35,773 bases of DNA, taken from a plasmid. Positions within the stretch are counted from its first letter, which is position 1. Every line of letters begins with the position of its first letter. Of the stretch, positions 2,884 to 34,286 are shown in pieces. A program made the translations under genes and the position numbers. The stretch lies in sequence record NZ_CP138856.1. One strand, written 5' to 3'. The notes beneath the pieces are model-generated. The model made no database searches, was not told the origin of the DNA, and saw nothing but the letters and a program-made list of their open reading frames with translations.

Positions 2884-3239
2884 GAGTTGACTCCTGCTTC
2901 CTGGGCTGCGGTTTGCTGAGCTTTCTGGGAGCCGAGTTCGACGGTGAGGACACCGCTGATGATCGCAACCATTCCAAGACCCATCACAGCGGTCAGAGGT
3001 TCACCGAAAATCGCGGCGGATAGCACGGCGGCGAGCACGACCCCGCTGGCTCCCCAGATGCCATAGGCGACGCCGATCTGCATTCCTTCGCGCAGGCAGA
3101 AGGTGAGGAAGACGAAAGTGCCGATGTATCCGGCAGCAACCACGATGTACCAGGATGGGTGATTGAGCGCCGCCTTGAGAGACAGCGTCGCCGCCACTTC
3201 GGTAGTGATGGCGCCAGCGAGCAGGAACCACTGCTTCAT
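2880..3239 (-). CDS. Small multidrug resistance (SMR) family membrane protein, ~119 aa, first subunit of a paired (EbrAB/YkkCD-like) pump
   Basis: The MKQWFLLAGAITTEVAATLSLKA… motif is a typical SMR N-terminus. Real start is the ATG at 3239, directly abutting the tetR stop at 3236-3238. The ORF track extends it artefactually to 3434. Confidence 0.75.
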   Translation of the reverse strand: MKQWFLLAGAITTEVAATLSLKAALNHPSWYIVVAAGYIGTFVFLTFCLREGMQIGVAYGIWGASGVVLAAVLSAAIFGEPLTAVMGLGMVAIISGVLTVELGSQKAQQTAAQEAGVNS

Positions 3240-3781
3240 GGGGTTGTTCCTTCGATCAGGGAGCGAATGCTGGAGACGACGGCTTCGAGATCCGCGCCGT
3301 GGAGGGTGGACACACCTGTGGCCTGGGCGCCCCAGAGTCCGTCGGCGGCGAGTCGGGCGGTGGTCAGCCTGGCTCGGGTGGCGGCGTCGAGATCGTCCGG
3401 GAGTTCGAGCCAGCGGCCCATCCGCGTAGTCCACGGTTCGGTGAGTTCGGGCCGATACGTCGCTTGGCCCCAGATGATGAACTCGGCGCGCTTGGCGGCC
3501 CCGTGGGCGGCGACGTGAACGTAGCTCAGGAGCCGCTCGGTGGCGTTGGCGTTCTCGAGGGGCTTGCCAAGGGTGGCAGTCATGTCGTTCTCGACGTTGG
3601 CCGCAGCGTGGTCGACGATCGCGGCGAGCAGTACGTCGCGGTTGCGGAAGTGATATAGCAATCCCGGTTTGGTGAGCCCGGCCTCGTGGGCCACTGCGTC
3701 AAGGGTAATGTCGCCACCCTCCGCTGCGTTCATGACGCGGAGGGCAGCTTCCAGGATCTCGGAGCGCTGACTGGTTCGCAT
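3236..3781 (-). CDS. TetR/AcrR family transcriptional regulator, 181 aa
   Basis: N-terminal helix-turn-helix (…ITLDAVAHEAGLTKPGLLYHF…) is typical of the TetR family. It is the first gene of a tetR-smr-smr operon. Confidence 0.8.
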   Translation of the reverse strand: MRTSQRSEILEAALRVMNAAEGGDITLDAVAHEAGLTKPGLLYHFRNRDVLLAAIVDHAAANVENDMTATLGKPLENANATERLLSYVHVAAHGAAKRAEFIIWGQATYRPELTEPWTTRMGRWLELPDDLDAATRARLTTARLAADGLWGAQATGVSTLHGADLEAVVSSIRSLIEGTTP

Positions 3782-3915
3782 ATAGCTAACTTTACCATTT
3801 GGTAGGTGAAGCCTTCAACTGCGGGCGCTGGTAGGGGCACCTGGGGTACACCCTAAGTGAACAGTTTGAGAATTACATGCATCGCGTTTAACTCACTGTT
3901 CGCTAGGGTGGGTTT

Positions 3916-4536
3916 ATGAGTAATGAAACAGAACCGTCACTACCTCTAGACATTCCTGAACAACCAGAGGTGGTTACGGGGCAGAAAATCGGTTACGCGC
4001 GCGTGAGTTCCAAGGATCAGAATCTCGACCGGCAGTTGGCGGCGTTGAAGAAGGAAAAAGTCTTCCGCATCTTCACCGACACGGTGAGTGGTTCGTCCAC
4101 CCAGCGCCCCGGCTTAGATGGGGCGCTTGATTATGTGCGCGCCGGCGATCAACTCATTGTGGTGAGCATGGACAGGCTTGCCCGTTCCCTTATCGACCTC
4201 CACCGCCTGGTCGATGAACTCACCGAACGCGGAGTATCCGTGAAATTCCTCAAAGAGGGGCAGACCTATTCATTGGACTCGAGTCCGGTGGCCAAGCTCA
4301 TGCTTGGCCTACTCGGGTCGGTGGCGGAGTTTGAACGCGCGATTATTCGTGAACGCCAAGCCGAAGGCATTGCCAAAGCCAAGGCGCGCGGCGTGTATAA
4401 GGGGCGTGCGAAAGTCCTCAACGAGGAGCAAATAATGCAGGCGCGCGAGTGGGTGAGCGAGGGGGTTCCGAAAACAGAGGTTGCCCGCCGCTTCGGGATA
4501 GGGCGCACCACACTGTATAAATACCTCGCCGACTAA
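3916..4536 (+). CDS. Serine recombinase (resolvase/invertase family), 206 aa
   Basis: Catalytic N-terminal motif (GYARVSSKDQNLDRQ) and a C-terminal helix-turn-helix (GRTTLYKYL). Divergent from tetR. Confidence 0.85.
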   Translation: MSNETEPSLPLDIPEQPEVVTGQKIGYARVSSKDQNLDRQLAALKKEKVFRIFTDTVSGSSTQRPGLDGALDYVRAGDQLIVVSMDRLARSLIDLHRLVDELTERGVSVKFLKEGQTYSLDSSPVAKLMLGLLGSVAEFERAIIRERQAEGIAKAKARGVYKGRAKVLNEEQIMQAREWVSEGVPKTEVARRFGIGRTTLYKYLAD

Positions 4537-4543
4537 CGGGCCG

Positions 4544-4837
4544 TTAGAGGTGATCAGCAAGCGAGAAAAAGACAAGTGCCCCCAGGATGAGACCGAGAAA
4601 GATTCCGACATCGATCCAGCGCGATTTTTTCACCGGCTTCTCCCACGGCATGGTGGCTGCTATGGCGACACCAACGCGGACTGCCGCAGCGAGCGAGCAG
4701 ACGGCGAAAACAGTCAGAAGCTCTGCCACCCAGCCAAACAGGCTGGCAACGATAATGGAAATGATCGCCACCCCGAAAATCACGGTGCTGGTGCGAAGCG
4801 ATGGACGAGGTGCGGGTGAAGGATGTTTTCTACTCAT
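4544..4837 (-). CDS. Hypothetical small membrane protein, 97 aa, ~3 TM helices
   Basis: Hydrophobic helices. Convergent with the resolvase; the two stops are 7 bp apart. Weak RBS. Confidence 0.35.
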   Translation of the reverse strand: MSRKHPSPAPRPSLRTSTVIFGVAIISIIVASLFGWVAELLTVFAVCSLAAAVRVGVAIAATMPWEKPVKKSRWIDVGIFLGLILGALVFFSLADHL

Positions 4838-4883
4838 GTGGACACCATGTCATATGCGTGTGCACTTTCCCCCGAACAAGGAT

Positions 4884-4978
4884 TTGCCCAGCTCGCGCAT
4901 GATAGACACGCGTACTGGGCGACTTTTATCAGCCGACGGACTCGTGTGCGTTAGCCGCGCGTGACGGTGGGTTTGTGC
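4884..4978. repeat. Left copy of a ~90-bp repeat flanking hicAB: hairpin module (gcccag-loop-ctgggc + T-rich) followed by a conserved ggactcgtgtgcgtt…gcgcgtgacggtggg segment
   Basis: The 35-bp hairpin module 4884-4918 is the reverse complement (1 mismatch) of 5681-5715. The downstream ~50 bp is a direct repeat of 5722-5770. Confidence 0.7.
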
Positions 4979-5072
4979 GGCAGGTGCCAGTTCAACTGGC
5001 AAAGGAGCATAATCAAGAAAAACCGTCAACCCATTGTTGACTTGTTTAGTCTCCCGTCGGTAGACTACTGTT

Positions 5073-5282
5073 ATGAAGCGAAACGCCGTCATCAAGAAAT
5101 TGAAAGCGGAAGCCAAGCGGCGCGGTCTTGAATTTGAGGAAATCGCCCTATCGCGCCATGACGCTTATCGGGTAGGCAGCACCACCCGAACCTTAGGTAG
5201 GCACCGTGAGATTGACGATGTGACAGTCAAGAAGTTTTTCGACCAATACGCCCAAGAATTAGGTAAAGGCTGGTGGAGGTAA
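5073..5282 (+). CDS. hicA: HicA-family toxin candidate (type II toxin-antitoxin), 69 aa
   Basis: Small basic protein with a HicA-like pattern (…RH…EI…VKKFFDQ). Its stop overlaps the hicB ATG (TAATG). Promoter-like TTGACT-N17-TAGACT lies upstream. Confidence 0.5.
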   Translation: MKRNAVIKKLKAEAKRRGLEFEEIALSRHDAYRVGSTTRTLGRHREIDDVTVKKFFDQYAQELGKGWWR

Positions 5283-5662
5283 TGACCACGACATACACAG
5301 TAACCGCAGAACGCGGAACCAGCGGAGTATGGGTGCTCGAATGCGCCGAACTAGGGGCAGTGTCCCAAACTAAGCGGCTGGCTAATGCTGCCGACGAGAT
5401 GCGCGAAGCACTGGCCTACCAGGCAGGCCTAGACCCAGACGAAATCAACATTATTGTTGATGTTGTTCTCCCACCGGGCCTTGCGGAAATGAAAGCTCGC
5501 GCCGAAAAAGAACGCGAAGAAGCGGCACGACTGGCCGCTGCGGCACAGGCAAGCACTCATGACCTCGCTGTTGCAATGAGAAACGCTGGAATGACCGTGC
5601 GAGATATGGGAACAGTCCTCGGAGTGTCTTACCAGCGCGCCCAAAAGCTCGCAGCATCCTAA
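5282..5662 (+). CDS. hicB: HicB-family antitoxin candidate, ~126 aa (N-terminal HicB/UPF0150 domain plus C-terminal helix-turn-helix)
   Basis: YTVTAERGTSGVWVLECAELGAVSQTKRLANAADEMREALA matches the HicB N-domain pattern. C-terminal MTVRDMGTVLGVSYQRAQKL is helix-turn-helix-like. Translationally coupled to hicA. Confidence 0.55.
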   Translation: MTTTYTVTAERGTSGVWVLECAELGAVSQTKRLANAADEMREALAYQAGLDPDEINIIVDVVLPPGLAEMKARAEKEREEAARLAAAAQASTHDLAVAMRNAGMTVRDMGTVLGVSYQRAQKLAAS

Positions 5663-5877
5663 ACACTGAAAGCGAAAGTCGCCCAGTACGCGTGTCTATC
5701 ATGCGCGTGCTGGGCGATTTTTCTCGACCGGTGGACTCGTGTGCGTTGGTGGCGCGTGACGGTGGGCTTGCAAGGTAGTCCCCAGTTAGTGGTGTGGGCG
5801 GCGTTAAACGGCTCGGCCTGGTCGATGATTTGGCGTCCAATCTTGGCCGCTTCGCGCCCGAAAAGTTTGTCCATCAC
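5659..5877 (-). CDS. Hypothetical small ORF, 72 aa, with a strong Shine-Dalgarno (AAGGAG-N5-ATG); its 3' half runs through the repeat
   Basis: The first ~27 codons have good coding character. The remainder is encoded by the repeat/hairpin sequence. Possibly a disrupted gene start. Confidence 0.2.
   Translation of the reverse strand: MMDKLFGREAAKIGRQIIDQAEPFNAAHTTNWGLPCKPTVTRHQRTRVHRSRKIAQHAHDRHAYWATFAFSV
5681..5770. repeat. Right copy of the hicAB-flanking repeat; hairpin + TTTTT acts as a likely hicAB terminator
   Basis: gcccagtacgcgtgtctatcatgcgcgtgctgggcgatttttctcg, then ccggtggactcgtgtgcgttggtggcgcgtgacggtgggcttg. Confidence 0.7.
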
Positions 5878-5899
5878 TGCTCCTTAACGCTTGGCTCTT

Positions 5900-6138
5900 T
5901 AGTGCTGCCGCGAAAGTCGCGTGTGCGACTTTCTTGCCCCGCGTGATTATCGCGTCCTGGCGTTCGTAGTTATCGCTAGCGGTTGCCTGACACAACCAGA
6001 GACACCGAAGCGCCGGCTACTTTTCTGCGCTGACCACGCTTTACGAGCGCTAAGCGCTCTAGGTTTATGGTACATTTGCACTAGAAGTGCCTAGGGGTGT
6101 TCCGATGCTCACCGTGCTGGTTAGAGGAGGTGGCGTGT
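5900..6138 (+). promoter_or_regulatory. Candidate oriT / traA leader with inverted repeats
   Basis: 9-bp perfect inverted repeat gaaagtcgc-gtgt-gcgactttc (5912-5935). Palindrome gagcgctaagcgctc (6047-6061). Immediately upstream of the relaxase gene, where MobF-type oriT sites normally lie. Confidence 0.4.
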
Positions 6139-9100
6139 GTGCTGACTATCGCGAAGATGGGTGCGCATTCCGTGGCCTATTATCAGTCCACAGTTGATGA
6201 GAATCGAGGGCCGGATTCGTACTATTCCGAGGACGGAAAGCAGCCAGCTTCGGTGTGGCTTCGGGGTGAAAAAGTGGCCGAGGTCTCGGCGTTTTTGGGT
6301 GCCGAAAACGGCGCTGTTGTGTCGGGAAAAACAGTTGAGGATTGGTTCAATAAGGCGGTTGCCCCGAGTGGTGTAAAGCTTGGAAAAGCTCTCGGGGATA
6401 AAGGGGTTCCGGGGTTCGATCTGACGTTTTGTGCGCCGAAATCTGTTTCATTGTTGTGGGGCATGGGTGTTGATTCTTCGGTTCGTAGCATCGTTGATGA
6501 AGCCCACCAGGCGGCAGTAAGTCAGGCATTGGATTACTTATCAGAGCATGCCGGCTATACGCGAAAGCAAGACCCTGCTGCGTCAAAGAAGCGTCTGATC
6601 ATTGAAAAATTGGCGGGTATTTCTGGCGTGAAATATGAACACCGAACTTCACGTGCGGGCGATCCTCACGTCCATTCCCACGTGTTGTTGGCGAATAAGC
6701 AGTTGTGCCAGGACGGTAAGGCTCGCACTCTGGATGGGGTTAGTTTGTATCACGAAGCGCGTGCGGCAGGCATGGTGTATCAGGCCACGGTGCGCGAAAT
6801 TCTGAGTCGAAAGCTCGGTGTGGAGTTCGGTGATGTGGTCAATGGGTGCGCGGAAATCGTCGGTCTTGATGACCCAGAATTGCTTGCGTCGTATTCAACT
6901 AGGGCGCGCGAGATTGACCAATGGCAGGCCGAGAATGGTTTAGAGACGCGGGCGTCGTATGAGCGCATCGCGCAGAAAATCACCCGCCGCACTAAGGACA
7001 CCGAGACTCCACTAGACGAGTTAGAAACCGAGTGGGCTAGTGCCGAACATGGCGCAACGGTGCGTGCGTTTGTGGACGGACTGGAGCCAAGAAGTAAAGC
7101 GGCCTCGCGTGAATTGGGGGAGGATTTCTTGCCGAAACCTGCCCAGATTTTGGCCGAGGTTATCGCAGAACGCTCCACGTTTACTCGTGCCGATGTAGCT
7201 GAAAAAGCAGCGGAACTTATCCGCCCTGGCGCAGTTTCTCCGCAGGATATGACTGCCACTGTGGAGCGGCTTGTCGATGCCGCGTTGGGTGAAAAAGGAA
7301 CGTGGTCGGTAACTCCGGAGAAATCCCGCGAGCTGGATAATACCCAGCGCGAAGGCTCGCAGAAGTACACCACCGTCGAGGTTGTCGACGAGGTTGAACG
7401 AGTAGTTGATATGGCTACTGCACGGGTTGAGCGCGGGGTTAATGCCGAGTCGATTCAGCCGGTTGAAGGCGAACTATCTCCTGCTCAGGCGGACGCTATG
7501 CGCGCGGTCGTCAGTTCTGACTATCTGACTTCTGTGGTAGTCGCGCCTGCCGGTGCTGGTAAGACGTCTTCACTTAAAGCCGCGCACAAGGCATGGAACC
7601 AGTCTGGTAAACACGTCGTGGGTCTAGCACCGACTGGTAAGGCTGCTGATGTGATGGTGGGCGAGAATGTGGCTGATGAATCCATGACGATTGCCCGCGC
7701 ATATGTTGGCACAGACGAGCTGACACCGGAGCAAACAGCGGCGAAGTTGGGGTGGGGCCAGGACACCGTCCTAGTCGTAGATGAAGCCGGCATGGTGTCT
7801 AACCCGGATATGGCTCGCGTGCTGGAGACGGCTAGTGCCGCAGGTTCGCGTGTGGTTTTTGTCGGTGATCCAGAGCAGTATTCGGCGGTTAAGGCACGCT
7901 CTGGTCTGCTGGCAACCTTGTCCCATGAGCTTCCCGATGCGGTCGAACTAGCCGAGGTGTTCCGCCAGCGTGATGCCGGTGAGCGTGAAGCATCGAAGTG
8001 GTTGCGCGGTGGTGAAGAATCAGACGTTTCCCGTGCCGCCGAGTGGTATATGCACCATGATCGCCTGCATGCTGGTTCGGTAACGGCCATGATGGACGAT
8101 GCTTTGGCTGGGTGGCGTGAGGATACTGCCGCAGGAAAGCAGTCGCTGCTGGTTGCTGCCACCCGCGACCAGGTCACCGCGCTTAATGCTGCGGCACAGA
8201 AGATTCGCGCCGAGCGTGGTGAGATTAACGCTGAGAACCGATTGTGCTTGTCTGATGGTTTGGAAGCTGGCGTTGGTGATGTAGTCCTGACTCGTCGTAA
8301 TGACTCGAAGCTGATTACTAGCAGCGGGGATATGGTGCGCAATGGTCAACGCTGGGTTGTTGATTCCATCGGTTATGACGGCTCGATTACTGCCCGTCGA
8401 TGTGACGATACTTCTGCCACAGTGACGTTAAATAGCGATTACCTGGAAAAGCATGCCCAACTCGGTTATGCCGCTACCGGGCATAGTTCCCAAGGTGCGA
8501 CCGTGGATGTGTCCCGTGTAGTCGCTGGTGTCGGCAACCTGGATAAAGCTAGCGTTTACGTTCCTATGACCCGTGGACGTGAAGGTAACTTCCTCTACAT
8601 CGCAGAGACTCAACCGGGAGATACTGAGACCGGGCACGGTCAGATACGCCAGGTTTCTCGGCGCGAGTCTGCCGAGTACGCCCGCGACCTCTTGGTGTCT
8701 GCAGGTGTGCGCGCCCAAGGTGACCGCACACCTCAAGCGTTATTTGGACAGGCTAAGCAGGACTGGGAACTGGCCAAACTGGTCAATCACCCTACCCATA
8801 TAGATACTGGTAGTCCTTTTGCTGGCACCGAGATGGGTGCCTACATGCAGGCGTTTGCCGCTAAGCGCGAAGCCCGCTTCGTTGATTTCCATGCTCGCGC
8901 TCAAGTCGATAGTACCGATGAGGTAGCACAGCCAGAGCTCGCATCCCCTTGCGAGCAGCAGGAACAGGACTTTGGCGATGCCTTGGGGCACCTCGATACT
9001 GAGATAGACCGCGTCAGCACGCAGCTAGAGACGCTGCGCGGTGAGTACGACCAAGCCAACCAGGCGGTTGAGCAGCTTGGGAAGCAGTGCGAACAGCAAG

Positions 9101-9495
9101 AACAGGTGGTTCGTGAGTCTGCAGAAGAAAAGAACGCGAGGGGCTTTTTCGGCAGACTACGCCACGGCAAGGAGGACCAAGCAATCCTCGATGAAGCAAT
9201 CCGACTGCGCGACAAAGTCGCGCAGCACTACGACCAAGCTGTGGACTATCGCGACAGCTTTACTACCCCGATTCGCCAGTTGGAGACCGAACTCGACGCA
9301 CTGTCTACTCAACGTCGCGATATGCAAGGCCTAAAGAAGTCCATGGACTTCCTCGACTCACTCGGCATGAGCGCTACCGCAGATGATGAGATGGTATCCC
9401 GTATCCACCAGCAAGCTGCTGCAGATAACGACTACGACAACGCCCCAGACAACTGGCTAGACAACACCCCCAGCAACGACGGCCCAGAGCTTTAG
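6139..9495 (+). CDS. traA: Conjugative relaxase/helicase TraA (MobF/TrwC-like), ~1118 aa
   Basis: N-terminal relaxase (begins V-LTIAKM…; GTG at 6139 with GGAGG 8 nt upstream; HxH motif DPHVHSHVLL). Central RecD-like helicase with Walker A (APAGAGKTS). C-terminal coiled-coil. Confidence 0.85.
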   Translation: MLTIAKMGAHSVAYYQSTVDENRGPDSYYSEDGKQPASVWLRGEKVAEVSAFLGAENGAVVSGKTVEDWFNKAVAPSGVKLGKALGDKGVPGFDLTFCAPKSVSLLWGMGVDSSVRSIVDEAHQAAVSQALDYLSEHAGYTRKQDPAASKKRLIIEKLAGISGVKYEHRTSRAGDPHVHSHVLLANKQLCQDGKARTLDGVSLYHEARAAGMVYQATVREILSRKLGVEFGDVVNGCAEIVGLDDPELLASYSTRAREIDQWQAENGLETRASYERIAQKITRRTKDTETPLDELETEWASAEHGATVRAFVDGLEPRSKAASRELGEDFLPKPAQILAEVIAERSTFTRADVAEKAAELIRPGAVSPQDMTATVERLVDAALGEKGTWSVTPEKSRELDNTQREGSQKYTTVEVVDEVERVVDMATARVERGVNAESIQPVEGELSPAQADAMRAVVSSDYLTSVVVAPAGAGKTSSLKAAHKAWNQSGKHVVGLAPTGKAADVMVGENVADESMTIARAYVGTDELTPEQTAAKLGWGQDTVLVVDEAGMVSNPDMARVLETASAAGSRVVFVGDPEQYSAVKARSGLLATLSHELPDAVELAEVFRQRDAGEREASKWLRGGEESDVSRAAEWYMHHDRLHAGSVTAMMDDALAGWREDTAAGKQSLLVAATRDQVTALNAAAQKIRAERGEINAENRLCLSDGLEAGVGDVVLTRRNDSKLITSSGDMVRNGQRWVVDSIGYDGSITARRCDDTSATVTLNSDYLEKHAQLGYAATGHSSQGATVDVSRVVAGVGNLDKASVYVPMTRGREGNFLYIAETQPGDTETGHGQIRQVSRRESAEYARDLLVSAGVRAQGDRTPQALFGQAKQDWELAKLVNHPTHIDTGSPFAGTEMGAYMQAFAAKREARFVDFHARAQVDSTDEVAQPELASPCEQQEQDFGDALGHLDTEIDRVSTQLETLRGEYDQANQAVEQLGKQCEQQEQVVRESAEEKNARGFFGRLRHGKEDQAILDEAIRLRDKVAQHYDQAVDYRDSFTTPIRQLETELDALSTQRRDMQGLKKSMDFLDSLGMSATADDEMVSRIHQQAAADNDYDNAPDNWLDNTPSNDGPEL

Positions 9496-9533
9496 TAAAA
9501 GTCCGTCCCCTCCTCATCGACTCCGAGCCTATG

Positions 9534-9615
9534 GTAAACAATGTTTACACAGTGGAGAGATACCGCTGCGAAAAATATGTACACTGCCGCAAGGCAAACT
9601 GTAAACATTGTTTAC
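9534..9615. promoter_or_regulatory. Pair of inverted 15-bp near-palindromes (gtaaacaatgtttac / gtaaacattgtttac) upstream of the ribbon-helix-helix gene
   Basis: The two sites are exact reverse complements of each other, 53 bp apart, and frame a promoter-like region. Probable operator for the downstream ribbon-helix-helix repressor. Confidence 0.5.
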
Positions 9616-9636
9616 GCAATAAGTGAAAGGAATTCC

Positions 9637-9903
9637 ATGGTTCAAGGCCCCCACAAGTCAGGACGAGTGGTGTCTGTGCGGATGTCAGAAGACATCATTG
9701 AGCGCTTAGATACTTTGTGTGCCCGTACTGGTCGCAGTCGCGGCTTCTACCTCAAGATGGCAGTTACTGCGATGCTGCCCCAGTTAGAGGAATATCACTG
9801 GGAACACGTCGCAGCGGACTTCGAAGACAAGAGCATTGAAAACGAGTTTTACCGCATCATGCTCGCCGGTCTGTCTGTAGAACATGACGATAAAGAGAAA
9901 TAG
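9637..9903 (+). CDS. Ribbon-helix-helix (CopG/ParG/omega-like) DNA-binding protein, ~88 aa
   Basis: Ribbon-helix-helix signature RVVSVRMSEDIIERLDTLCARTGRSRGFYLKMAV. RBS aaagga before the ATG at 9637. The ORF track start at 9541 lies inside the operator palindromes. Confidence 0.6.
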   Translation: MVQGPHKSGRVVSVRMSEDIIERLDTLCARTGRSRGFYLKMAVTAMLPQLEEYHWEHVAADFEDKSIENEFYRIMLAGLSVEHDDKEK

Positions 9904-9904
9904 A

Positions 9905-9965
9905 AGACTTATCTACCAGCATGTTTAGCATTTACAGTAAACTGTACAACTGTATGCCTGTAAAG
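9905..9965. repeat. parC-like repeat cluster (tttacagtaaactgta … gtatgcctgtaaag)
   Basis: Palindrome tacagtaaactgta. The gtatgcctgt motif recurs at 34476 and 35460. Homologous to 34440-34500. Confidence 0.45.
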
Positions 9966-10347
9966 CTCACCTATTCTCTTAATATGAGCGAATGCTGAGA
10001 TGCCGCAGGACGCCTTTCGTGCTGCAAATGTGCCAGAGAGATTTCACAGAGAGATTTCTTCGGCAACTGACTTTTCGTCTTGGAGGGCACCAGAAAGTGT
10101 GAAAAGCGTTGGCAGGGGCGCCGCCGGGAACCGGCGGTCGGGGTCGGAGGTCTAAGAGACCGTGGCGTTGATTCTGGATACCGATGACGAGATTTTCATC
10201 GCGGCGGACGCCGCGGACATGGCGAAGCAGCTTGTCGGCCTCCTCTACGGCGGGTGAGGCACAGCAGAGCGTCGCTCCCGTGCCGAACGACGCCATCAAG
10301 ATCATCTCCGGCCCCGCGAAGCTGGACGAGACGAAGGAGTGAGGACC

Positions 10348-10896
10348 ATGTCCGACCAGAACATCAACATCAAGCTCGACCGCGGCGGCCCCGAGAACCA
10401 CGCCTGGACGGTGCTGGGCACCCTGCTCGCCTGCGGCGCTGTCGGCATGGCCGCCTGGGCGATCTCCAACGCCGGAGCCCTGGACCTGGCTGCGACCGGC
10501 CTGTTTTTCTTCTTCATGCAGCTCATCTCGATGATGCTCAAGGCGGGGCTGATCGTCGTCCCGGAGAAGAACCGGAAGGACTTCGGCGAGACGCGCGGCC
10601 TGCTCAAGACCGCCTGGCGCGAGTTCCAGGAGTTCCAGGGCCGCTCGCCCATCTGGCGGATGGCGCTGCTGGCGCTCGGCTTCACCGTCGGCTACATGAT
10701 CTTCCGCTGGGGACTCTCGGTGGCGCTCGGCATCTTCAGCAACGTCTGGATCGCCGGAGCCGCCTCGGCGCTCATCGCGTCCTTCATCGTCGCGCCGCAG
10801 CTGTTCACGAACCTGGTCTCGAAGATGAAGACGAAGTCGGGCCTCCAGGTGAAGACGACCACTGGTACGCCCGATGCCGAGAGGGGTGACGTCTGA
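10348..10896 (+). CDS. Hypothetical integral membrane protein (~4 TM helices), 182 aa; first gene of the high-GC block
   Basis: AAGGAG RBS 8 nt before the ATG at 10348. Hydrophobic helices. GC ~70%. Confidence 0.5.
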   Translation: MSDQNINIKLDRGGPENHAWTVLGTLLACGAVGMAAWAISNAGALDLAATGLFFFFMQLISMMLKAGLIVVPEKNRKDFGETRGLLKTAWREFQEFQGRSPIWRMALLALGFTVGYMIFRWGLSVALGIFSNVWIAGAASALIASFIVAPQLFTNLVSKMKTKSGLQVKTTTGTPDAERGDV

Positions 10897-11513
10897 TGAC
10901 GAAGGCGGCGATCACGACCATCGGCGCAGCACTGCTGGCCGCCGCTGCTCTCGCGCTCAGCGGGTGCAGCTACCCCGGCGACGACGAGGACCGCGCCGCG
11001 TTCCATGCCGAAGCGCAGGATCCAGTCCCCTCGGCACCGGCTACCGAGCCTACCGAGCCGGAGACCCCGGCCGAGGAGACCGGCGACGAGAGCACCGAGG
11101 AAGGCGGCCAGGGCGAGAAGTCGGGCGCAACCGCGGACCTGGGCGTCGAGGACGGGCATGTCCAGTATCTCCGCGCGATCCAGAACTTCTCGCCCGCGCT
11201 TGAGCGCTGGGTGCTCGACGAGGAGGCGGGCGAGGTCACCTACGGGATCGTCAACTGCGCCGGCCAGACGAAGTCCGAGGGCGTCGCCACCCTCGAGCGG
11301 GTCGACGGCGGCGATGGAGCAGCGTTCGAGGCGACGTGGATCGGCAAGTCGCCGTTGGAGAACGTCGCGGCGGAATCGATACGCGTCGAGATCACCGAGG
11401 ACACTTTGAAGAACTTCGCGGACGTTGCGACGTCCAGGACCGACATCGAGGCGAGCAACGTCGCTTCGATGTGCGCCGAGGTCGGCGAGACAGCCGCCGA
11501 CTTCGTCTTCTGA
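10896..11513 (+). CDS. Putative secreted lipoprotein, 205 aa (signal peptide + lipobox LSGC)
   Basis: N-terminal MTKAAITTIGAALLAAAALALSGC. Acidic Pro/Glu-rich linker. Start overlaps the upstream stop (TGATG). Confidence 0.55.
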   Translation: MTKAAITTIGAALLAAAALALSGCSYPGDDEDRAAFHAEAQDPVPSAPATEPTEPETPAEETGDESTEEGGQGEKSGATADLGVEDGHVQYLRAIQNFSPALERWVLDEEAGEVTYGIVNCAGQTKSEGVATLERVDGGDGAAFEATWIGKSPLENVAAESIRVEITEDTLKNFADVATSRTDIEASNVASMCAEVGETAADFVF

Positions 11514-11722
11514 GAATGACCACAAGAACGCCCCCAGATCTACTCCGGGACCTTCTCCGCGCGAGCAGGGTCGGACGCGACTCGGGAACAATGGTGCCGT
11601 GGCAGATTTCGACCTCCTCTGCGCGGCGCTTGTCTCCGCCCCGAAGACACCATCGAAGGTCTCGTCGCGGACGTTCCGAAGCTCCGGCACGACGAAGCCT
11701 GATCGTCGTCGTCCCGAGAAGA

Positions 11723-13786: not shown

Positions 13787-13911
13787 TCTACCGGGGACCG
13801 TGGGCTCGCCGCCTCCCTCGATCGGGCGTGCGCAGCACCTCGCCGGTATGACCGTGGGCATAGACGAGTCGCCCCGCATGGCAGATTCTGAGGCCGAACC
13901 GCGTCCATAGC

Positions 13912-24728: not shown

Positions 24729-24869
24729 TAAAAGTCCGTCCCCTCCTCATCGACTCCGAGCCTATGGTAAACAATGTTTACACAGTGGAGAGATACCGCT
24801 GCGAAAAATATGTACACTGCCGCAAGGCAAACTGTAAACATTGTTTACGCAATAAGTGAAAGGAATTCC

Positions 24870-26129: not shown

Positions 26130-26746
26130 TGACGAAGGCGGCGATCACGACCATCGGCGCAGCACTGCTGGCCGCCGCTGCTCTCGCGCTCAGCGGGTGC
26201 AGCTACCCCGGCGACGACGAGGACCGCGCCGCGTTCCATGCCGAAGCGCAGGATCCAGTCCCCTCGGCACCGGCTACCGAGCCTACCGAGCCGGAGACCC
26301 CGGCCGAGGAGACCGGCGACGAGAGCACCGAGGAAGGCGGCCAGGGCGAGAAGTCGGGCGCAACCGCGGACCTGGGCGTCGAGGACGGGCATGTCCAGTA
26401 TCTCCGCGCGATCCAGAACTTCTCGCCCGCGCTTGAGCGCTGGGTGCTCGACGAGGAGGCGGGCGAGGTCACCTACGGGATCGTCAACTGCGCCGGCCAG
26501 ACGAAGTCCGAGGGCGTCGCCACCCTCGAGCGGGTCGACGGCGGCGATGGAGCAGCGTTCGAGGCGACGTGGATCGGCAAGTCGCCGTTGGAGAACGTCG
26601 CGGCGGAATCGATACGCGTCGAGATCACCGAGGACACTTTGAAGAACTTCGCGGACGTTGCGACGTCCAGGACCGACATCGAGGCGAGCAACGTCGCTTC
26701 GATGTGCGCCGAGGTCGGCGAGACAGCCGCCGACTTCGTCTTCTGA
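26129..26746 (+). CDS. Putative lipoprotein (copy 2)
   Basis: Duplicate of 10896..11513. Confidence 0.55.
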   Translation: MTKAAITTIGAALLAAAALALSGCSYPGDDEDRAAFHAEAQDPVPSAPATEPTEPETPAEETGDESTEEGGQGEKSGATADLGVEDGHVQYLRAIQNFSPALERWVLDEEAGEVTYGIVNCAGQTKSEGVATLERVDGGDGAAFEATWIGKSPLENVAAESIRVEITEDTLKNFADVATSRTDIEASNVASMCAEVGETAADFVF

Positions 26747-26956
26747 GAATGACCACAAGAACGCCCCCAGATCTACTCCGGGACCTTCTCCGCGCGAGCA
26801 GGGTCGGACGCGACTCGGGAACAATGGTGCCGTGGCAGATTTCGACCTCCTCTGCGCGGCGCTTGTCTCCGCCCCGAAGACACCATCGAAGGTCTCGTCG
26901 CGGACGTTCCGAAGCTCCGGCACGACGAAGCCTGATCGTCGTCGTCCCGAGAAGAT

Positions 26957-27622
26957 CTAGGCTCGTCCGGCGCGAAGGGCGATGAGGGCTGCTTCTACGC
27001 GGTTGCGCGCTTCAGTCTTCCGCAGGATCGCGGAAACGTGCACCTTGACGGTGCCGGGAGCGAGGTGCAGCGCTTTCGCGATCTCAGCGTTCGTCTCTCC
27101 TTGGCTGAGCCGGATCAGAATCTCTCGCTCGCGAGCCGTGAGGCGTTCGAAGCGTTCGACGGCGCTCGCGTACTGGGTGTACGTCGTCGAGACGCCGGAG
27201 TCGAGCAGACGCCGGGCGACCGAGGGCGAGAAGAACGCTCCGCGACCGGCGACGGCGTGCACACCGGCGATCAGCTGGCGCGGATCGCCGGACTTGAGGA
27301 CAAACCCGTCTGCGTCGAGCCGGATGGCCTCGGCGATGTAGTCGTCCTCCCCGAACGTGGTGACGAACAGGCAGGGGAGCGCGCTCCCGTCGGAGCGGAG
27401 CCGTTGCAGCGCGTCGAGTCCGCTCATCCCGGGCATCTGGATGTCGAAGAGGGCGACGTCGAGACGGTGCGCGTCGATCTTGCGCAGGGCCTCTGCTCCG
27501 TCGGCGGCCTGGGCTACGACCTCGATGGCGGGATCGGTGTCGAGGATCCCGACGATGCCGGTCCTCACGAGGGGGTCGTCGTCGGCGACCAGGACTCTGA
27601 CCGGGGCCTCGGTCGCTGTCAT
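26957..27622 (-). CDS. NarL/LuxR response regulator (copy 2; stop codon TAG instead of TGA)
   Basis: Duplicate of 11723..12388, with a 1-bp indel at the stop codon. Confidence 0.85.
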   Translation of the reverse strand: MTATEAPVRVLVADDDPLVRTGIVGILDTDPAIEVVAQAADGAEALRKIDAHRLDVALFDIQMPGMSGLDALQRLRSDGSALPCLFVTTFGEDDYIAEAIRLDADGFVLKSGDPRQLIAGVHAVAGRGAFFSPSVARRLLDSGVSTTYTQYASAVERFERLTAREREILIRLSQGETNAEIAKALHLAPGTVKVHVSAILRKTEARNRVEAALIALRAGRA

Positions 27623-29020
27623 CGTTGTCCTCCTGCGATGTACTCGGTGCTGGAGACCTCGTCCTGCGCGAAGCAGATCCGGTACACGTCCCCGGCAGCG
27701 TCGTCAAAGGTGTTCGCGGTCACGGCGTAGTCGTGGCAGTCGTCCGGTCGGTTCTCGCCCCGCCTGGCCGGCAGCTCGTGGCCGGGCAGGATCCGCTCGG
27801 TCTCCGCCCGCGCGTCTCCGACGCTGATGCTTGAGAAGGCCCCTGCCGACAGCAGCGCGCGGTGGTTCTGCACCACCGTCAGCGCCTCGACCGCTGCGAG
27901 CCCGACGACGACGATCGCCGCGGTCGAGGCGAGAATCAGTCGCTGGCGGAGCTTCGTTCTGCCGGTCGAGCTCTCATCGACGTCTCTCGTCGCCTCCACA
28001 GCGCGATCATCGTGCGTGCTCTGCTCCTGACGGCGAGTCGGGAGGACCGCAGAGAGGACGAACGCACTGTCCGTCTTCTCCGCGGCGAGTTCTCCGCCGT
28101 GGGCGCGGAGCTCACTTTCCAAAGTGCTCAGGCCCGTGCCCGCTGTGTGCGCGTCGGCAGGAGTCTCGCCGAGGGCGTTCTCGATCTTCAGACGCAGCTC
28201 GGCACCGACGTCGGCAGCGGTGATGTCGATCGGGGTGCCGGGAGCGTGCCTGCTTGCGTTCGTGATCGCTTCTTGTAGGACCCTCGTGACCTGCTCGCCT
28301 CCGAAGTCCTGCAGCCGCCTGGGTTCCGGCAGTCCTTGCACGGTGATGCGCGCACCGGCTGCGCGGGCCCGGGCCAGCAGTGCATCGACAGATGCTGCGC
28401 CCATTGGCAGCACGGGAGCGCCGGATTCTGAGGTCGGAGACGGAGTCCCCCAGGCGTTCGACCGCGTGGGCGAGGTCGTTGCGGGCGTGTAAGAGCGAGG
28501 TGCGGGCGCTCTCGGGCAGTGCCGGGTCGATCTCGAGCCGTCCGAGATTGAGCGCGACGAGGCTCAACGAGTGGCCGAGGTCGTCGTGCAGCGACTGCGC
28601 GAGGGCGATCCGGTCGGCGGTGGCGCGCTCCTTGAGCTCGGCCAGGCGCTGGACCTGCCGCAGCTCTCGCTCGCGGTCTGCCCTCCGCCCGAGGACGATG
28701 TACTGGCGCACGGCGAGACCGATCAGCCAGGGCACACCAGCGCGCATGAGCGCCGGGGGCAACTCCTCCGCGACGTAGAGCCAGTGCCCGTCGAGCCACG
28801 TGGCCCGGGCCATGCTCACGACGACCAGCACTGCCAGTCCTCCCAGGCCCGCGCGCGGACCCCTGGACCAGAGCCCGATTGCGATCGCGGCGATGCCGGT
28901 GAGCAGGGCCATGAAGAGGCCCGGCTCCGGCGCGGAGGCCAGCACCCCGAAACCGATCGCCGTTAGCGCGTCGACGCTCCGGCGCGCAGACGGACGATCA
29001 ATTAGGGTCATGCGCTCCAT
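27619..29020 (-). pseudogene. NarL-type histidine kinase with the same frameshift and C-terminal extension (copy 2)
   Basis: Duplicate of 12385..13786. The frameshift is present in both copies. Confidence 0.6.
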
Positions 29021-29145
29021 TCTACCGGGGACCGTGGGCTCGCCGCCTCCCTCGATCGGGCGTGCGCAGCACCTCGCCGGTATGACCGTGGGCATAGACG
29101 AGTCGCCCCGCATGGCAGATTCTGAGGCCGAACCGCGTCCATAGC

Positions 29146-29865
29146 GTGGATTTCATGACTCACGAAACTTCGACGCGCACGCTTTCGACGTCGCGCAGAT
29201 CCTCGTCCCGCCCCGTGCCGTGGCCCGCGCTGTTGATTGCCGTCGCAGCTCTTGCTGCCCTCGCTCTCGCGACGTATCCGGTGCGTGAGCGCCTCTTCAC
29301 CGCTGTCGCCGGTCTCGCCGAGGGCTCGGCACTGGCCTCGGCGGTGGGATCCGTGGCCGAATTCGGTCTGCTTGCCCTCGTGGCGACCGCCGGCGTCCTC
29401 GCTCTCTGGTGCTGGCTGCGCGAGCGCCGGCGGTTCTGGCTCCTGGCGCTGGCTGGACTCGGCGTGATCACGGCCTACGGATTGAGCGAGGCCGTCAAGC
29501 TGCTGGTCGAGGAGCCGCGGCCCTGCAGCGTCGTCGACACTGCCACTGTGCTCAGCTGCCCCGGGAGCGGGGACTGGTCGTGGCCGTCGAATCACGCCGT
29601 CCTGGCCGCTGCCTTCGCCACCGCCTGCATCCTCGTCGTCCCCCGCCTCGCCTGGTTCGCGTTGCCTCTCGCGCTGGCGATCGCCGCCTCTCGAGTGGCC
29701 GCCGGAGTCCACTACGTCCACGACGTGCTCTCCGGTCTCGCGCTCGGTGCCCTCGTCGTCGCGGCCGTCGTCGCCGCGGCGTCGCCGGTGCTGGACCGGC
29801 GTCTGACTGGCGGACGGGACGGCCATCCGGATTCGGCCAGCCGGTCCCAGGGCGGGCGCGCATGA
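29146..29865 (+). CDS. PAP2-family (BcrC-like) phosphatase (copy 2)
   Basis: Duplicate of 13912..14631. Confidence 0.75.
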   Translation: MDFMTHETSTRTLSTSRRSSSRPVPWPALLIAVAALAALALATYPVRERLFTAVAGLAEGSALASAVGSVAEFGLLALVATAGVLALWCWLRERRRFWLLALAGLGVITAYGLSEAVKLLVEEPRPCSVVDTATVLSCPGSGDWSWPSNHAVLAAAFATACILVVPRLAWFALPLALAIAASRVAAGVHYVHDVLSGLALGALVVAAVVAAASPVLDRRLTGGRDGHPDSASRSQGGRA

Positions 29866-30788
29866 TCGAGGTCGACCGTCTCTCGAAGCGCTACGGCCAG
29901 GTGACCGTTGTTGAAGGATTGAGCTTCACGGTCCCCGACGGATCCATCACCGGGTTCCTAGGCCCGAACGGAGCCGGCAAGTCCACGACCATGCGATGCC
30001 TCCTCGGGCTCCACAAGCCCACCACCGGAACCGTGCTCATCGACGGGCTCCCGCTGACCGCCCAGACGAGGCCGGCCGAGGTCGTCGGAGCCGTCCTCGA
30101 CGCCTCCTGGTTCCACCCCGGCCGGACCGGACTGGCGCACCTGACGACCATCGCTGCTTCTGCCGGCCTACCCGACCGCCGCGCCTGGGAGGTACTCGAG
30201 GCCGTCGCGTTGACCCAGGCAGCTCATCGCAGGATCGGCGGCTACTCGCTCGGGATGAAGCAGCGCCTGGGGCTCGCGGCCGCCCTGCTGGGCAGACCGC
30301 GCAACATCGTCCTCGACGAGCCGATGAATGGCCTCGACCCGCAGGGGATGGAGTGGATGCGCGCCTTCCTGCGCGATGCCGCCGCGAGCGGCCACGCCGT
30401 CCTTGTCTCCTCCCACCTGCTCGGCGAGATGGAGACCCTCGCCGACCGCCTCGTCGTCATCGACAACGGCCGCTTGCTCGGCCAGTGGGACGTCGCCGAT
30501 CTTCTGCACGCGCGCAGCCGCCAAGCGCTCCTCCGCACCGACGACGACGAACGCGTCGAGCAGGCTCTGCGCGGACTGCGGGTCCCCGTAACCGCACTGC
30601 CCGAGGGACTCTGCGTGACATTCGACGAGACGGTCCCCGACGCGCTCACGCTCTCGCGGACCTGCCGAGACCTCGACGTGCTCATCACTGCCCTGACGGA
30701 CAAGCCGATCCGGCTGGAAGAGGAATTCCTCCGCCTCACCGACCGATCATCCGAAGCCGAACATGGCAAAGAAAGGCCCGAGCGATGA
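29862..30788 (+). CDS. ABC transporter ATP-binding protein, intact copy, 308 aa
   Basis: Walker A (GPNGAGKST), signature (YSLGMKQRL), Walker B (IVLDEP) and H-loop all lie in one frame. Stop overlaps the permease ATG. Confidence 0.85.
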   Translation: MIEVDRLSKRYGQVTVVEGLSFTVPDGSITGFLGPNGAGKSTTMRCLLGLHKPTTGTVLIDGLPLTAQTRPAEVVGAVLDASWFHPGRTGLAHLTTIAASAGLPDRRAWEVLEAVALTQAAHRRIGGYSLGMKQRLGLAAALLGRPRNIVLDEPMNGLDPQGMEWMRAFLRDAAASGHAVLVSSHLLGEMETLADRLVVIDNGRLLGQWDVADLLHARSRQALLRTDDDERVEQALRGLRVPVTALPEGLCVTFDETVPDALTLSRTCRDLDVLITALTDKPIRLEEEFLRLTDRSSEAEHGKERPER

Positions 30789-31516
30789 CACGAGCATTGA
30801 CAGCTGAGGTGCGCCGACTGCTCACCGTGCGCTCCACAGGCATCTTCGCTGCGCTGCTGATCGGCTGCTGCGTCGGCCCCATCGTCCTGATGGGCATCGT
30901 CTACGACCCGGCCTATCGAGGGCCGATCGACGCCGGTGATCTGGGCAAGTGCGTGAGCATCTTCCATGTGCTGGCCATCGTGTTCGCCGGCACACACACC
31001 GCGACCGAGATCAATGCGGGGTCGACGGCGCTGTCCTTCCTCACGCAGAAGAGTCGATGGGCCTCGTTGGTGGCACAGGCAGCGGTCCAGTGGGCGTTCC
31101 TCGCATTCGCGTACGTCGTCGGCATCGGCCTCGCGCTCGTCGCGGCGACGTTCTATCCCGACGGGCTGGCCATGTCGCCGCGAGGGTGGGCCTACCTCGC
31201 GGCCTACCTCCTCGTCGTTCTCCTGTGGGCGACGATGGCGACGGCGCTTGCCGTCCTCACGCGCTCCGTCGCGGTGTCCGTCGCCGCGCCGATCACGTGG
31301 ATGCTCCTGATCGAACAGCTCGCGTCCATGGTCCCGATGCTCGAGGCGATCACGCCGTGGCTGCCGTTCAACGCCAGCCACATGCTCCTCGCCCAGGCAC
31401 TTGGAGAGGCCCCTGCAGGCATGTCCGTGTGGCCTCCTGCCGTCGCGCTTCTCGTACCGGCACTCGGCCTGGCGGGCGCGGGGCTATGTGCCCATGTCCG
31501 ACGGGACTCGGCGTGA
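30785..31516 (+). CDS. ABC-2 type permease (copy 2)
   Basis: Duplicate of 15549..16280. Confidence 0.65.
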   Translation: MTRALTAEVRRLLTVRSTGIFAALLIGCCVGPIVLMGIVYDPAYRGPIDAGDLGKCVSIFHVLAIVFAGTHTATEINAGSTALSFLTQKSRWASLVAQAAVQWAFLAFAYVVGIGLALVAATFYPDGLAMSPRGWAYLAAYLLVVLLWATMATALAVLTRSVAVSVAAPITWMLLIEQLASMVPMLEAITPWLPFNASHMLLAQALGEAPAGMSVWPPAVALLVPALGLAGAGLCAHVRRDSA

Positions 31517-31710
31517 TGGGCAGGCCTGCGCCTCGCATCCGCCGCCCAAGACGGTTCGTGGCGTCGCAGGGCTGGGGCTGACTCACACCGCCGTTCAACA
31601 AACGGTCGTTGATGTGAACAGTGGTCCGGAGGAGCCGATCGCGAGCATTTCGCCGAGTGGGTGTTCACAAACCCGTTCAACTACATCTAGACTAGACAGA
31701 GGCAGTTGAA

Positions 31711-32551
31711 GGTGCTGTTGCAACTTGGGGCGGGAGCCAAGAAAGCTCCGTTTTTATTGTGTGATCAACGCTATGTTCCTGTGTTGTCAGGCCGTCTCGA
31801 ATACCCGGCTAACAATCACTGCATCCGGATTCGGGTGACCATAGGCAAACATCGTGCCCTGCCCCTTCCGCAATGAGTGCATCGCTTCCATCCCTTTCAA
31901 CGTCCGGTAGGCAGACGTTCGGTTTTTGAATGCTCCTTTCGGCCCCAGGATCCGCTTTAACCGGCCATGATCGCCTTCAATGACGTTGTTGAGGTATTTC
32001 ACCCGACGATGCTCGACCGTCGATGGACAGACGCCTTCCGCCTTCAGCTCAGAGATTGCCCTGGCGAGTGAGGGGGCCTTGTCGGTGCTGATCACCCGCG
32101 GATAGCCTGCCGATTTATTCGACCGTAGCGTCTTCGCCAGGAAACGCTTCGCTGCCGCGACGTTGCGTTTTGGTGAGAGGTAGAAGTCCAGGGTCTGGCC
32201 ACCGGCGGTGATTGCCCGATAGAGGTAGCACCACTTTCCCCCGACCCGGATATAGGTCTCATCCACCCGCCAGGACCTGGCCTGCCAGTCAGGAACTTGC
32301 CGATACCACCGGGTCTTCTTATCCAGCTCAGGAGCATATTTCTGGACCCAGCGGTAGATCGTGGTGTGATCGACCGGCACTCCCCGCTCGGTCATCATCT
32401 CTTCGAGGTCGCGATAGCTCACGCCGTAGCGGCAGTACCACCGCACCGCCCACAGGATGATTTCACGAGGGAACTGCCGACCGGAGAAGATGCCCATGGA
32501 CCTGATTATTCCACGCCGGTCTTCCTACTGCCCCAACTTTGCAACAGCACC
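31711..32551 (-). mobile_element. tnp: IS6-family IS (copy 2) with transposase 31787..32497
   Basis: Identical to 16475..17315. Confidence 0.8.
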
Positions 32552-32613
32552 AAAATATATCATCATGAACAATAAAACTGTCTGCTTACATAAACAGTAA
32601 TACAAGGGGTGTT

Positions 32614-33429
32614 ATGAGCCATATTCAACGGGAAACGTCTTGCTCGAGGCCGCGATTAAATTCCAACCTGGATGCTGATTTATATGGGTATAGATGGGCT
32701 CGCGATAATGTCGGGCAATCAGGTGCGACAATCTATCGATTGTATGGGAAGCCCAATGCGCCAGAGTTGTTTCTGAAACATGGCAAAGGTAGCGTTGCCA
32801 ATGATGTTACAGATGAGATGGTCAGACTAAACTGGCTGACGGCATTTATGCCTCTTCCGACCATCAAGCATTTTATCCGTACTCCTGATGATGCATGGTT
32901 ACTCACCACTGCGATCCCCGGGAAAACAGCATTCCAGGTATTAGAAGAATATCCTGATTCAGGTGAAAATATTGTTGATGCGCTGGCAGTGTTCCTGCGC
33001 CGGTTGCATTCGATTCCTGTTTGTAATTGTCCTTTTAACAGCGATCGCGTATTTCGTCTCGCTCAGGCGCAATCACGAATGAATAACGGTTTGGTTGATG
33101 CTAGTGATTTTGATGACGAGCGTAATGGCTGGCCTGTTGAACAAGTCTGGAAAGAAATGCATAAGCTTTTGCCATTCTCACCGGATTCAGTCGTCACTCA
33201 TGGTGATTTCTCACTTGATAACCTTATTTTTGACGAGGGGAAATTAATAGGTTGTATTGATGTTGGACGAGTCGGAATCGCAGACCGATACCAGGATCTT
33301 GCCATCCTATGGAACTGCCTCGGTGAGTTTTCTCCTTCATTACAGAAACGGCTTTTTCAAAAATATGGTATTGATAATCCTGATATGAATAAATTGCAGT
33401 TTCATTTGATGCTCGATGAGTTTTTCTGA
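32614..33429 (+). CDS. aph(3')-Ia: APH(3')-Ia (copy 2)
   Basis: Identical duplicate of 17378..18193. Confidence 0.95.
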   Translation: MSHIQRETSCSRPRLNSNLDADLYGYRWARDNVGQSGATIYRLYGKPNAPELFLKHGKGSVANDVTDEMVRLNWLTAFMPLPTIKHFIRTPDDAWLLTTAIPGKTAFQVLEEYPDSGENIVDALAVFLRRLHSIPVCNCPFNSDRVFRLAQAQSRMNNGLVDASDFDDERNGWPVEQVWKEMHKLLPFSPDSVVTHGDFSLDNLIFDEGKLIGCIDVGRVGIADRYQDLAILWNCLGEFSPSLQKRLFQKYGIDNPDMNKLQFHLMLDEFF

Positions 33430-33445
33430 TAGTTAGTCTTTGTAG

Positions 33446-34286
33446 GGTGCTGTTGCAACTTGGGGCGGGAGCCAAGAAAGCTCCGTTTTTATTGTGTGAT
33501 CAACGCTATGTTCCTGTGTTGTCAGGCCGTCTCGAATACCCGGCTAACAATCACTGCATCCGGATTCGGGTGACCATAGGCAAACATCGTGCCCTGCCCC
33601 TTCCGCAATGAGTGCATCGCTTCCATCCCTTTCAACGTCCGGTAGGCAGACGTTCGGTTTTTGAATGCTCCTTTCGGCCCCAGGATCCGCTTTAACCGGC
33701 CATGATCGCCTTCAATGACGTTGTTGAGGTATTTCACCCGACGATGCTCGACCGTCGATGGACAGACGCCTTCCGCCTTCAGCTCAGAGATTGCCCTGGC
33801 GAGTGAGGGGGCCTTGTCGGTGCTGATCACCCGCGGATAGCCTGCCGATTTATTCGACCGTAGCGTCTTCGCCAGGAAACGCTTCGCTGCCGCGACGTTG
33901 CGTTTTGGTGAGAGGTAGAAGTCCAGGGTCTGGCCACCGGCGGTGATTGCCCGATAGAGGTAGCACCACTTTCCCCCGACCCGGATATAGGTCTCATCCA
34001 CCCGCCAGGACCTGGCCTGCCAGTCAGGAACTTGCCGATACCACCGGGTCTTCTTATCCAGCTCAGGAGCATATTTCTGGACCCAGCGGTAGATCGTGGT
34101 GTGATCGACCGGCACTCCCCGCTCGGTCATCATCTCTTCGAGGTCGCGATAGCTCACGCCGTAGCGGCAGTACCACCGCACCGCCCACAGGATGATTTCA
34201 CGAGGGAACTGCCGACCGGAGAAGATGCCCATGGACCTGATTATTCCACGCCGGTCTTCCTACTGCCCCAACTTTGCAACAGCACC
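33446..34286 (-). mobile_element. tnp: IS6-family IS (copy 3) with transposase 33522..34232, in direct orientation with the other copies; closes a Tn4352-like IS–aphA1–IS composite transposon
   Basis: Full 841-bp element. Same inverted repeats at 33446 and 34266-34286. Confidence 0.8.

Follow-up and report, generated by a model that had tools for sequence, protein, structure and literature searches.

A 15.2-kb head-to-tail duplication and its joint at an IS1628 remnant in the plasmid record NZ_CP138856.1

The plasmid record NZ_CP138856.1 (35,773 nt; called here the window, which means the whole stretch of DNA that was analysed) holds a segment of about 15.2 kb twice, head to tail, beside one rep/par module. 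How can such a structure arise, and was it formed in the cell or during assembly? We assign a probability of about 0.6 to a real plasmid in which a tandem duplication occurred between two copies of a short direct repeat, CACCGAAAAT, and in which the insertion sequence (IS) IS1628 collapsed at the joint. The outcome would be equivalent to a plasmid dimer minus one rep/par arc. A real in vivo origin of whatever kind is, in total, somewhat more probable still.

The duplicated unit and its joint

A direct duplication of a mixed backbone and accessory segment had been proposed in a preliminary description of this DNA. Self-BLAST and a base-by-base alignment walk confirmed it. Positions 3004-18237 match positions 18237-33473 with 99.974% identity over 15,237 columns (1 mismatch, 2 gap openings). 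The copies are 15,234 and 15,237 nt long and share a single base (C) at the joint. A 15-kb repeat at this level of identity is not explicable by chance. The two units had been described as the same sequence; they are near-identical, and differ at exactly three sites, one substitution and two small indels.

The window begins at the repA ATG: the RepA open reading frame (ORF) starts at its first base. Ten independent contigs that encode an identical RepA run unbroken across the position 35773 to 1, which shows that the window is a complete circle. Removal of one unit leaves a monomer of 20,540 bp (35,773 = 20,540 + 15,233), and the single-copy arc of 5,303 bp contains the entire parA-repA module. 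The plasmid is not a multimer of a whole plasmid, since its length is not an integer multiple of the monomer and not every gene is repeated.

Three full copies of the IS are present (Table 1). It is IS1628, an 841-bp member of the IS6 family (NCBIfam IS6 transposase, 3.8e-79; PLSDB label "IS6-like element IS1628 family"). The first 28 nt of IS1628 recur at 18210-18237. The right edge of the unit is therefore located 27-28 nt inside the third IS copy (33472/33473) and not at an IS end. Read literally, the joint runs from the aphA1 flank through IS1628 nt 1-28 into smr from position 3005 onward, with an overlap of 1 nt. It contains no full IS copy, in agreement with the earlier view that the structure is not an (IS-gene)n array. 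The joint-specific string, as against the two parental junctions, is GGGGCGGGAGCCCGAAAATCGCGG.

The preliminary description also singled out the left boundary as one without an IS. No IS end is indeed found at position 3004 in smr. The boundary is nevertheless not odd: a 10-bp direct repeat is located there whose other copy spans the right junction of IS1628 copy 3, and such a repeat is the normal signature of a short-homology duplication. CACCGAAAAT is found only twice in the monomer, at the two sites R1 and R2 of Table 1. Since relatives without the duplication have both 10-mers, the homology is older than the duplication. The unduplicated parent thus carried a short direct repeat at both endpoints, as is found in short-homology duplications.

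The right flank of the joint is unaltered. On the left flank, 812 nt of the IS are gone and 8 of the 10 repeat nucleotides are left (CCGAAAAT, 18237-18244), so that a second deletion must be assumed. From its sequence, the joint can be read as IS nt 1-27, CC, GAAAAT and smr from 3012 onward, that is, as a 10-bp-homology joint with a full IS from which nt 28-839 were afterwards lost. The similarity between the left and right terminal inverted repeats of IS1628 ends at nt 26-27, and the breakpoint 27|28 coincides with the inner limit of this imperfect repeat.

Remnants of the same element were observed elsewhere. In an NCBI genome (L019) and a metagenome contig (L042), IS1628 nt 1-27 are followed by ACCCACC and then by the sequence upstream of aphA1, where the window has a full IS. 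This site corresponds to the other IS position, between the permease gene and aphA1, and the breakpoint is 27|28 as at the window joint. A solo 31-nt remnant of the right end of IS1628 was found in three further genomes (L027, L030, L031). Because of these independent remnants, we conclude that IS1628 decay to an end remnant happens in nature. A hairpin at IS nt 23-39 was considered as a fragile site and dropped; its folding is no better than that of shuffled sequences (z = -0.8).

Origin of the structure

The arrangement would correspond to a head-to-tail dimer minus one 5.3-kb arc that comprises most of an IS1628, parA, repA and the SMR (small multidrug resistance) genes. Two steps can be proposed. 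In the first, RecA-independent recombination, slippage or single-strand annealing would have occurred between the two CACCGAAAAT copies, of which one spans the right junction of the IS1628 that follows aphA1 and the other lies in smr, 4.5 kb on via the rep region. This may have taken place between sister copies or within a dimer, unequal exchange also being possible, and would leave one rep/par module. The predicted intermediate, a plasmid of 36.6 kb, would read aphA1 - full IS1628 - GAAAAT - smr (GAAAATCGCGG(smr)). In the second step, nt 28-839 of the joint IS would be lost, whether afterwards or as part of one multi-switch replication event, so that the 27-nt terminal inverted repeat and CC would be left. 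As the 15.2-kb unit has no replication module, the 35.8-kb form would be the smallest viable carrier of the joint. The structure doubles the dosage of aph(3')-Ia, of a two-component and transport module described below, and of the relaxase, resolvase and tetR genes, adds one truncated chimeric smr, and keeps one rep/par module. Aminoglycosides or peptide antibiotics may have selected for the added dosage and so maintained the structure.

Over-circularised assembly, of which the preliminary description had warned with good reason, remains the main rival; we consider it the less likely explanation. A long-read assembler would have walked a 20.5-kb circle 1.74 times and left the overlap untrimmed, and rotation to repA would have turned this overlap into an internal tandem repeat. 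The record is circular and begins exactly at the repA ATG. It holds one contiguous tandem overlap, and 35,773/20,540 equals 174%, inside a 100-200% range. Canu and NextDenovo leave kilobases of start-end overlap that scale with read length, up to about 200% for plasmids (Wick & Holt, PMC6966772). The joint is unique to this record, and the nearest PLSDB record, CP103906.1, is itself an exact 2x concatemer, with only 3 indels between its halves.

The differences between the copies also bear on this rival: none of the changes that separate the copies is present in the 11-12 independent loci, and all three are derived states with respect to these outgroup loci. Two of the three lie in or beside GATC sites (P ~0.003). 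An extra T within a GATC of the histidine-kinase gene, present in both copies, brings the window-private changes at such sites to three of four. This T splits a gene of 497 aa into ORFs of 264 and 333 aa. It is absent from 12 of 12 independent loci that carry the module, where the sequence is intact; a search of genome contigs for the +T variant gave 0 matches, and exact look-up in the gene index gave no entry for the split ORF. The extra T reflects either systematic miscalling of bases or a frameshift private to this plasmid. Sequencing error may account for the frameshift of the histidine kinase, found in both copies, and for that of the ABC ATPase, found in copy A, and we give neither any biological weight. 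Errors at methylation motifs are documented in nanopore assemblies (PMC11610573). The copy differences would fit nanopore errors at GATC, yet a recent real duplication would look alike. A short-read graph would give identical copies, so the differences show that the sequence was not assembled from one.

The position of the joint argues against an artefact. A contig-end join should fall anywhere, whereas one side of this joint lies on the sole 10-bp repeat shared with the right junction of the IS. We scanned every possible monomer position as a breakpoint for an in-register run of at least 10 nt reaching over the right end of IS1628 copy 3: 5 of 20,527 positions qualify, the observed left edge among them (~2.4e-4, a value to be discounted about 10-fold as the homology was noticed post hoc). 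The other side coincides with the inner limit of the terminal repeat of the IS, and the independent natural remnant stops at this point as well. Matches of 10 nt are not known to be used in any assembler step. This evidence discriminates because a contig-end join has no reason to hit either the only 10-bp repeat of the IS junction or the edge of an inverted repeat.

A single real event is a simpler, if quite improbable, account. It would be a non-homologous deletion in a dimer, or an unequal exchange, that joined IS1628 nt 28 to smr 3005 with 1-nt microhomology, the 10-bp repeat being coincidental. The literal reading, in which the copies overlap by a single C, suits it, and one event is more economical than two. 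It leaves over two coincidences, the 10-nt match and the 27|28 breakpoint shared with L019 and L042.

Amplification in the manner of IS6/IS26 elements has virtually no chance of explaining the repeat. A transposase would have inserted a translocatable unit beside an IS copy, or RecA would have mediated a crossover between IS copies. Three IS1628 copies in the same orientation flank aphA1, the IS-aphA1-IS part looks like such an insertion, and relatives have a single IS there (L003). The joint, however, has 27-29 nt of the IS and no full copy, and the left end of the unit lies in smr without an IS. The joint sequence thus refutes an IS6-style origin of the 15.2-kb repeat.

Further routes were rejected because the joint lacks the site or the IS copy that they require: over-length transfer by relaxase and oriT, recombination by the resolvase at res, and, as sole cause, adjacent deletion or formation of a cointegrate mediated by an IS.

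Several points weigh against the short-homology duplication that we favour, in addition to the post hoc discount given above. Two directly repeated resolvase genes with presumed res sites, together with 15 kb of perfect homology, should collapse the structure fast, by multimer resolution and RecA. Two steps, or else a single complex event, have to be assumed for this route. The exact 40-mer of the joint gave 0 matches in genome contigs and 0 in metagenome contigs, no PLSDB record spans the joint, and exact look-up of the chimeric SMR ORF found no entry in the gene index. Where assemblies come from short reads, the lack of an entry for the ORF carries little weight, as their contigs would be interrupted at each of the two branch points. 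Finally, the record shows signs of long-read-first assembly, residual errors and rotation to repA, which are conditions for start-end overlap artefacts. These signs, in a plasmid family that includes concatemer records, indicate that suitable conditions existed, and a real duplication sequenced likewise would show the same signs.

Relatives, gene content and neighbouring features

Judged by its sequence, the plasmid is a pNG2-family Corynebacterium resistance plasmid. Its backbone of RepA (Replicase, PF03090), parA and a MobF/TrwC relaxase is colinear with known members, and its PLSDB matches comprise pNG2 (NC_005001) and other Corynebacterium plasmids (C. diphtheriae, C. tuberculostearicum and C. 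striatum). No PLSDB record covers at least 80% of the plasmid, and nothing specific to it was found in the literature. Monomeric relatives are common, and some carry aphA1. A metagenome contig (L003) has the same backbone with one IS and without aphA1, L035 is colinear with window positions 1030-17315, and an NCBI isolate contig (L033) has aphA1 and lacks 2080-3843, the NIPSNAP-SMR-SMR-TetR module. All three are monomers. The closest PLSDB relative, the C. diphtheriae plasmid CP103906.1 (L001; 25,151 bp), was deposited as an exact dimer, two head-to-tail halves of about 12,575 bp each that are 3 indels apart, without substitutions; the relaxase gene is split in one half. This record is probably an assembler-doubled plasmid.

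Table 1. Coordinates of the features of the window and of the independent IS1628 remnants.
Feature	Position	Strand	Remarks
Copy A of the duplicated unit	3004..18236		15,233 nt without the shared C; self-BLAST, difference walk
Copy B of the duplicated unit	18237..33473		15,237 nt with the shared C; self-BLAST, difference walk
Joint	18210..18238	plus	29-nt IS1628 remnant: nt 1-27 + CC (= IS nt 840-841), then GAAAAT, then smr
Repeat R1, CACCGAAAAT	3002..3011	plus	inside smr, left edge of unit; present in 21 unduplicated relatives
Repeat R2, CACCGAAAAT	34283..34292	plus	last 4 nt of IS1628 copy 3 + 6 nt of right flank; present in 10 unduplicated relatives
IS1628 copy 1	16475..17315	minus	transposase gene 16551-17261, minus
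IS1628 copy 2	31711..32551	minus	copy-B twin of copy 1
IS1628 copy 3	33446..34286	minus	nt 1-28 within unit, remainder single-copy
Independent 27-nt remnant	L019 5887-5913; L042 1121-1147		NCBI GCA_054515975.1; metagenome QWCQ01000748.1
Copy-B-only C-to-T	25787 (copy A twin 10554)		C of a GATC site; synonymous
Copy-A-only 1-nt deletion	11724-11725 (copy B 26958)		adjoins GATC; response-regulator stop TAG to TGA
Copy-A-only 2-nt deletion	14833-14835 (copy B 30069-30070)		ABC ATPase frameshifted in copy A only
Extra T within GATC	13192 and 28426 (both copies)		histidine-kinase gene
Single-copy arc, first part	33474..35773		most of IS1628 copy 3, parA, RHH/ParG-like gene
Single-copy arc, second part	1..3003		repA, two small ORFs, NIPSNAP gene, first SMR gene, 3' part of second SMR gene
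repA	1-1443		window start = ATG; single-copy arc
parA	34559-35149		single-copy arc
RHH (ribbon-helix-helix)/ParG-like gene	35146-35412		single-copy arc
Sole intact SMR efflux gene pair	2554-2883 and 2880-3239	minus	Pfam Multi_Drug_Res on identical genes in L003
Chimeric truncated SMR ORF over the joint	18197..18472	minus	smr codons 1-79 + 12 codons from IS remnant/aphA1 flank
tetR-family regulator	copy A 3236..3781, copy B 18469-19014	minus	
Serine resolvase	copy A 3916..4536, copy B 19149-19769	plus	Pfam Resolvase 6.5e-41 + HTH_7
TrwC/MobF relaxase-helicase	copy A 6139..9495, copy B 21372-24728	plus	Pfam TrwC 2.5e-64, AAA_30
High-GC accessory block	copy A 10047..16474, copy B 25280-31710		NCBIfam and Pfam matches
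aphA1 / aph(3')-Ia	copy A 17378..18193, copy B 32614..33429	plus	NCBIfam APH(3')-Ia 647 bits vs cutoff 625

The content listed for the unit in the preliminary description was largely recovered: tetR, the resolvase (two copies in direct repeat), the relaxase, an RHH gene, the high-GC block, the IS (IS1628 and not IS26) and aphA1, besides small ORFs without family match. Two items have to be revised. The unit was said to carry the 3' part of smr; its left edge cuts the second SMR gene, and as this gene is on the minus strand the unit keeps the 5' 79 codons. A hicAB toxin-antitoxin pair was also proposed, and none of the seven candidate ORFs in 4544-5840 has a HicA or HicB match in Pfam or NCBIfam. 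The sole family signal in this region is a sub-threshold DUF937 match.

A 41-bp inverted repeat (40/41 identity) is located at 4886-4926 and 5675-5715, with twins in copy B. Between its arms lie the ORFs of 69 and 126 aa that precede the relaxase gene. In relatives, contigs from short reads break there: L006 and L008 end at 4923, and L006 starts at 5678. The segment within the repeat could be invertible or oriT-associated.

The accessory block encodes two hypothetical proteins, a response regulator (RR), a histidine kinase (HK), a PAP2 undecaprenyl-diphosphatase-like protein, an ABC (ATP-binding cassette) ATPase and a permease. The RR/HK-PAP2-ABC module, whose dosage is doubled in the window, is of the bacitracin/lantibiotic type. 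The 6.4-kb high-GC block is 99.8% identical to part of pLEW279a (NC_009128). A 144-bp direct repeat (87.5% identity; 9819-9962 and 34345-34487) flanks the whole accessory block together with the IS/aphA1 part. In L015 and L034 the RHH gene is followed directly by parA, from which we deduce that the accessory block is an insertion between these two genes. The insertion possibly arose by recombination between related plasmids.

The aphA1 fragment (17299-18209) matches enterobacterial sequence of the Tn903/Tn4352 type, and IS1628 abuts it where IS26 does there. A truncated element that we take to be IS26 lies beside aphA1 in L019 (4560-5000) and L033 (17176-17292). The orientation of aphA1 relative to IS1628 in these two loci differs from that in the window.

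The breakpoint of L033 at 3844 is located just upstream of the resolvase gene, and L019 shares this boundary, at 3847. The NIPSNAP-SMR-SMR-TetR module, with identical TetR, is found next to resolvase genes in many Corynebacterium chromosomes (L023-L032). This distribution suggests that the module may be exchanged at a res site. The TetR/SMR and RR/HK modules are widespread, with thousands of blocks.

Significance and comparison with known systems

If real, the structure documents a further increase in resistance-gene dosage by short-homology duplication, on a plasmid of Gram-positive skin and clinical Corynebacterium and not in an enterobacterial IS26 array. It would also point to a repeatable decay of IS1628 to 27-nt end remnants. 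If an artefact, it carries a practical lesson: once a plasmid record has been rotated to repA, an overlap left untrimmed may pass for a duplication within it, and databases then overstate both the size of the plasmid and the copy number of its genes. In either case the event is of an ordinary kind and the understanding of such systems is unchanged. Short-homology tandem duplications, partial plasmid dimers and over-circularised contigs are all already known; the recurrent 27-nt IS1628 end remnant is the sole mildly new element.

Short-junction, RecA-independent tandem duplications and amplifications are known in Salmonella and Escherichia coli chromosomes and in resistance plasmids in heteroresistance. 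The window resembles them in its head-to-tail order, in endpoints on a short direct repeat (10 bp here), in the added dosage of resistance genes and in its expected instability. It differs from those described in that it is a small Corynebacterium plasmid, that one repeat is half IS end and half flank, and that the IS at the joint has collapsed to a 29-nt remnant. As a dimer lacking the 5.3-kb arc, it is also akin to head-to-tail multimers and deletion derivatives of plasmids, of which CP103906.1 is recorded as an exact dimer. Unlike multimers, it is not a whole-number multiple of the monomer and has only one rep/par module.

With the translocatable-unit arrays of IS26 and other IS6 elements, such as (IS26-aphA1)n of the Tn4352B type, the window shares an IS6-family element and aphA1, and its local IS1628-aphA1-IS1628 arrangement is of that type. 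In contrast to these arrays, no complete IS lies between the units, the joint having only IS1628 nt 1-27/28. Nor do the unit ends fall at IS termini: the left end is at smr 3004, and smr is intact at that site in 21 relatives. Start-end overlap artefacts (Wick & Holt, PMC6966772) are similar in topology and size range, and the copy differences resemble consensus errors. Such artefacts should not, however, coincide with short homologies or with the edges of IS inverted repeats.

To our knowledge, the IS6 family is not known to excise, and near-precise excision is not known to be described for IS1628 or IS6. We can tentatively imagine, as a rather doubtful extension, that IS1628 undergoes recurrent, end-specific, near-precise excision that leaves the 27-nt terminal inverted repeat and 2-3 nt of the other end. 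Acting at a short-homology joint, it would have given a stably inherited partial dimer with doubled resistance-gene dosage despite two resolvase/res copies. Nearly precise excision that leaves a terminal-repeat remnant is known for Tn10 and Tn5. The joint of the window is similar in that it keeps the 27-nt terminal inverted repeat and 2 nt of the other end, and a similar remnant is found in L019 and L042.

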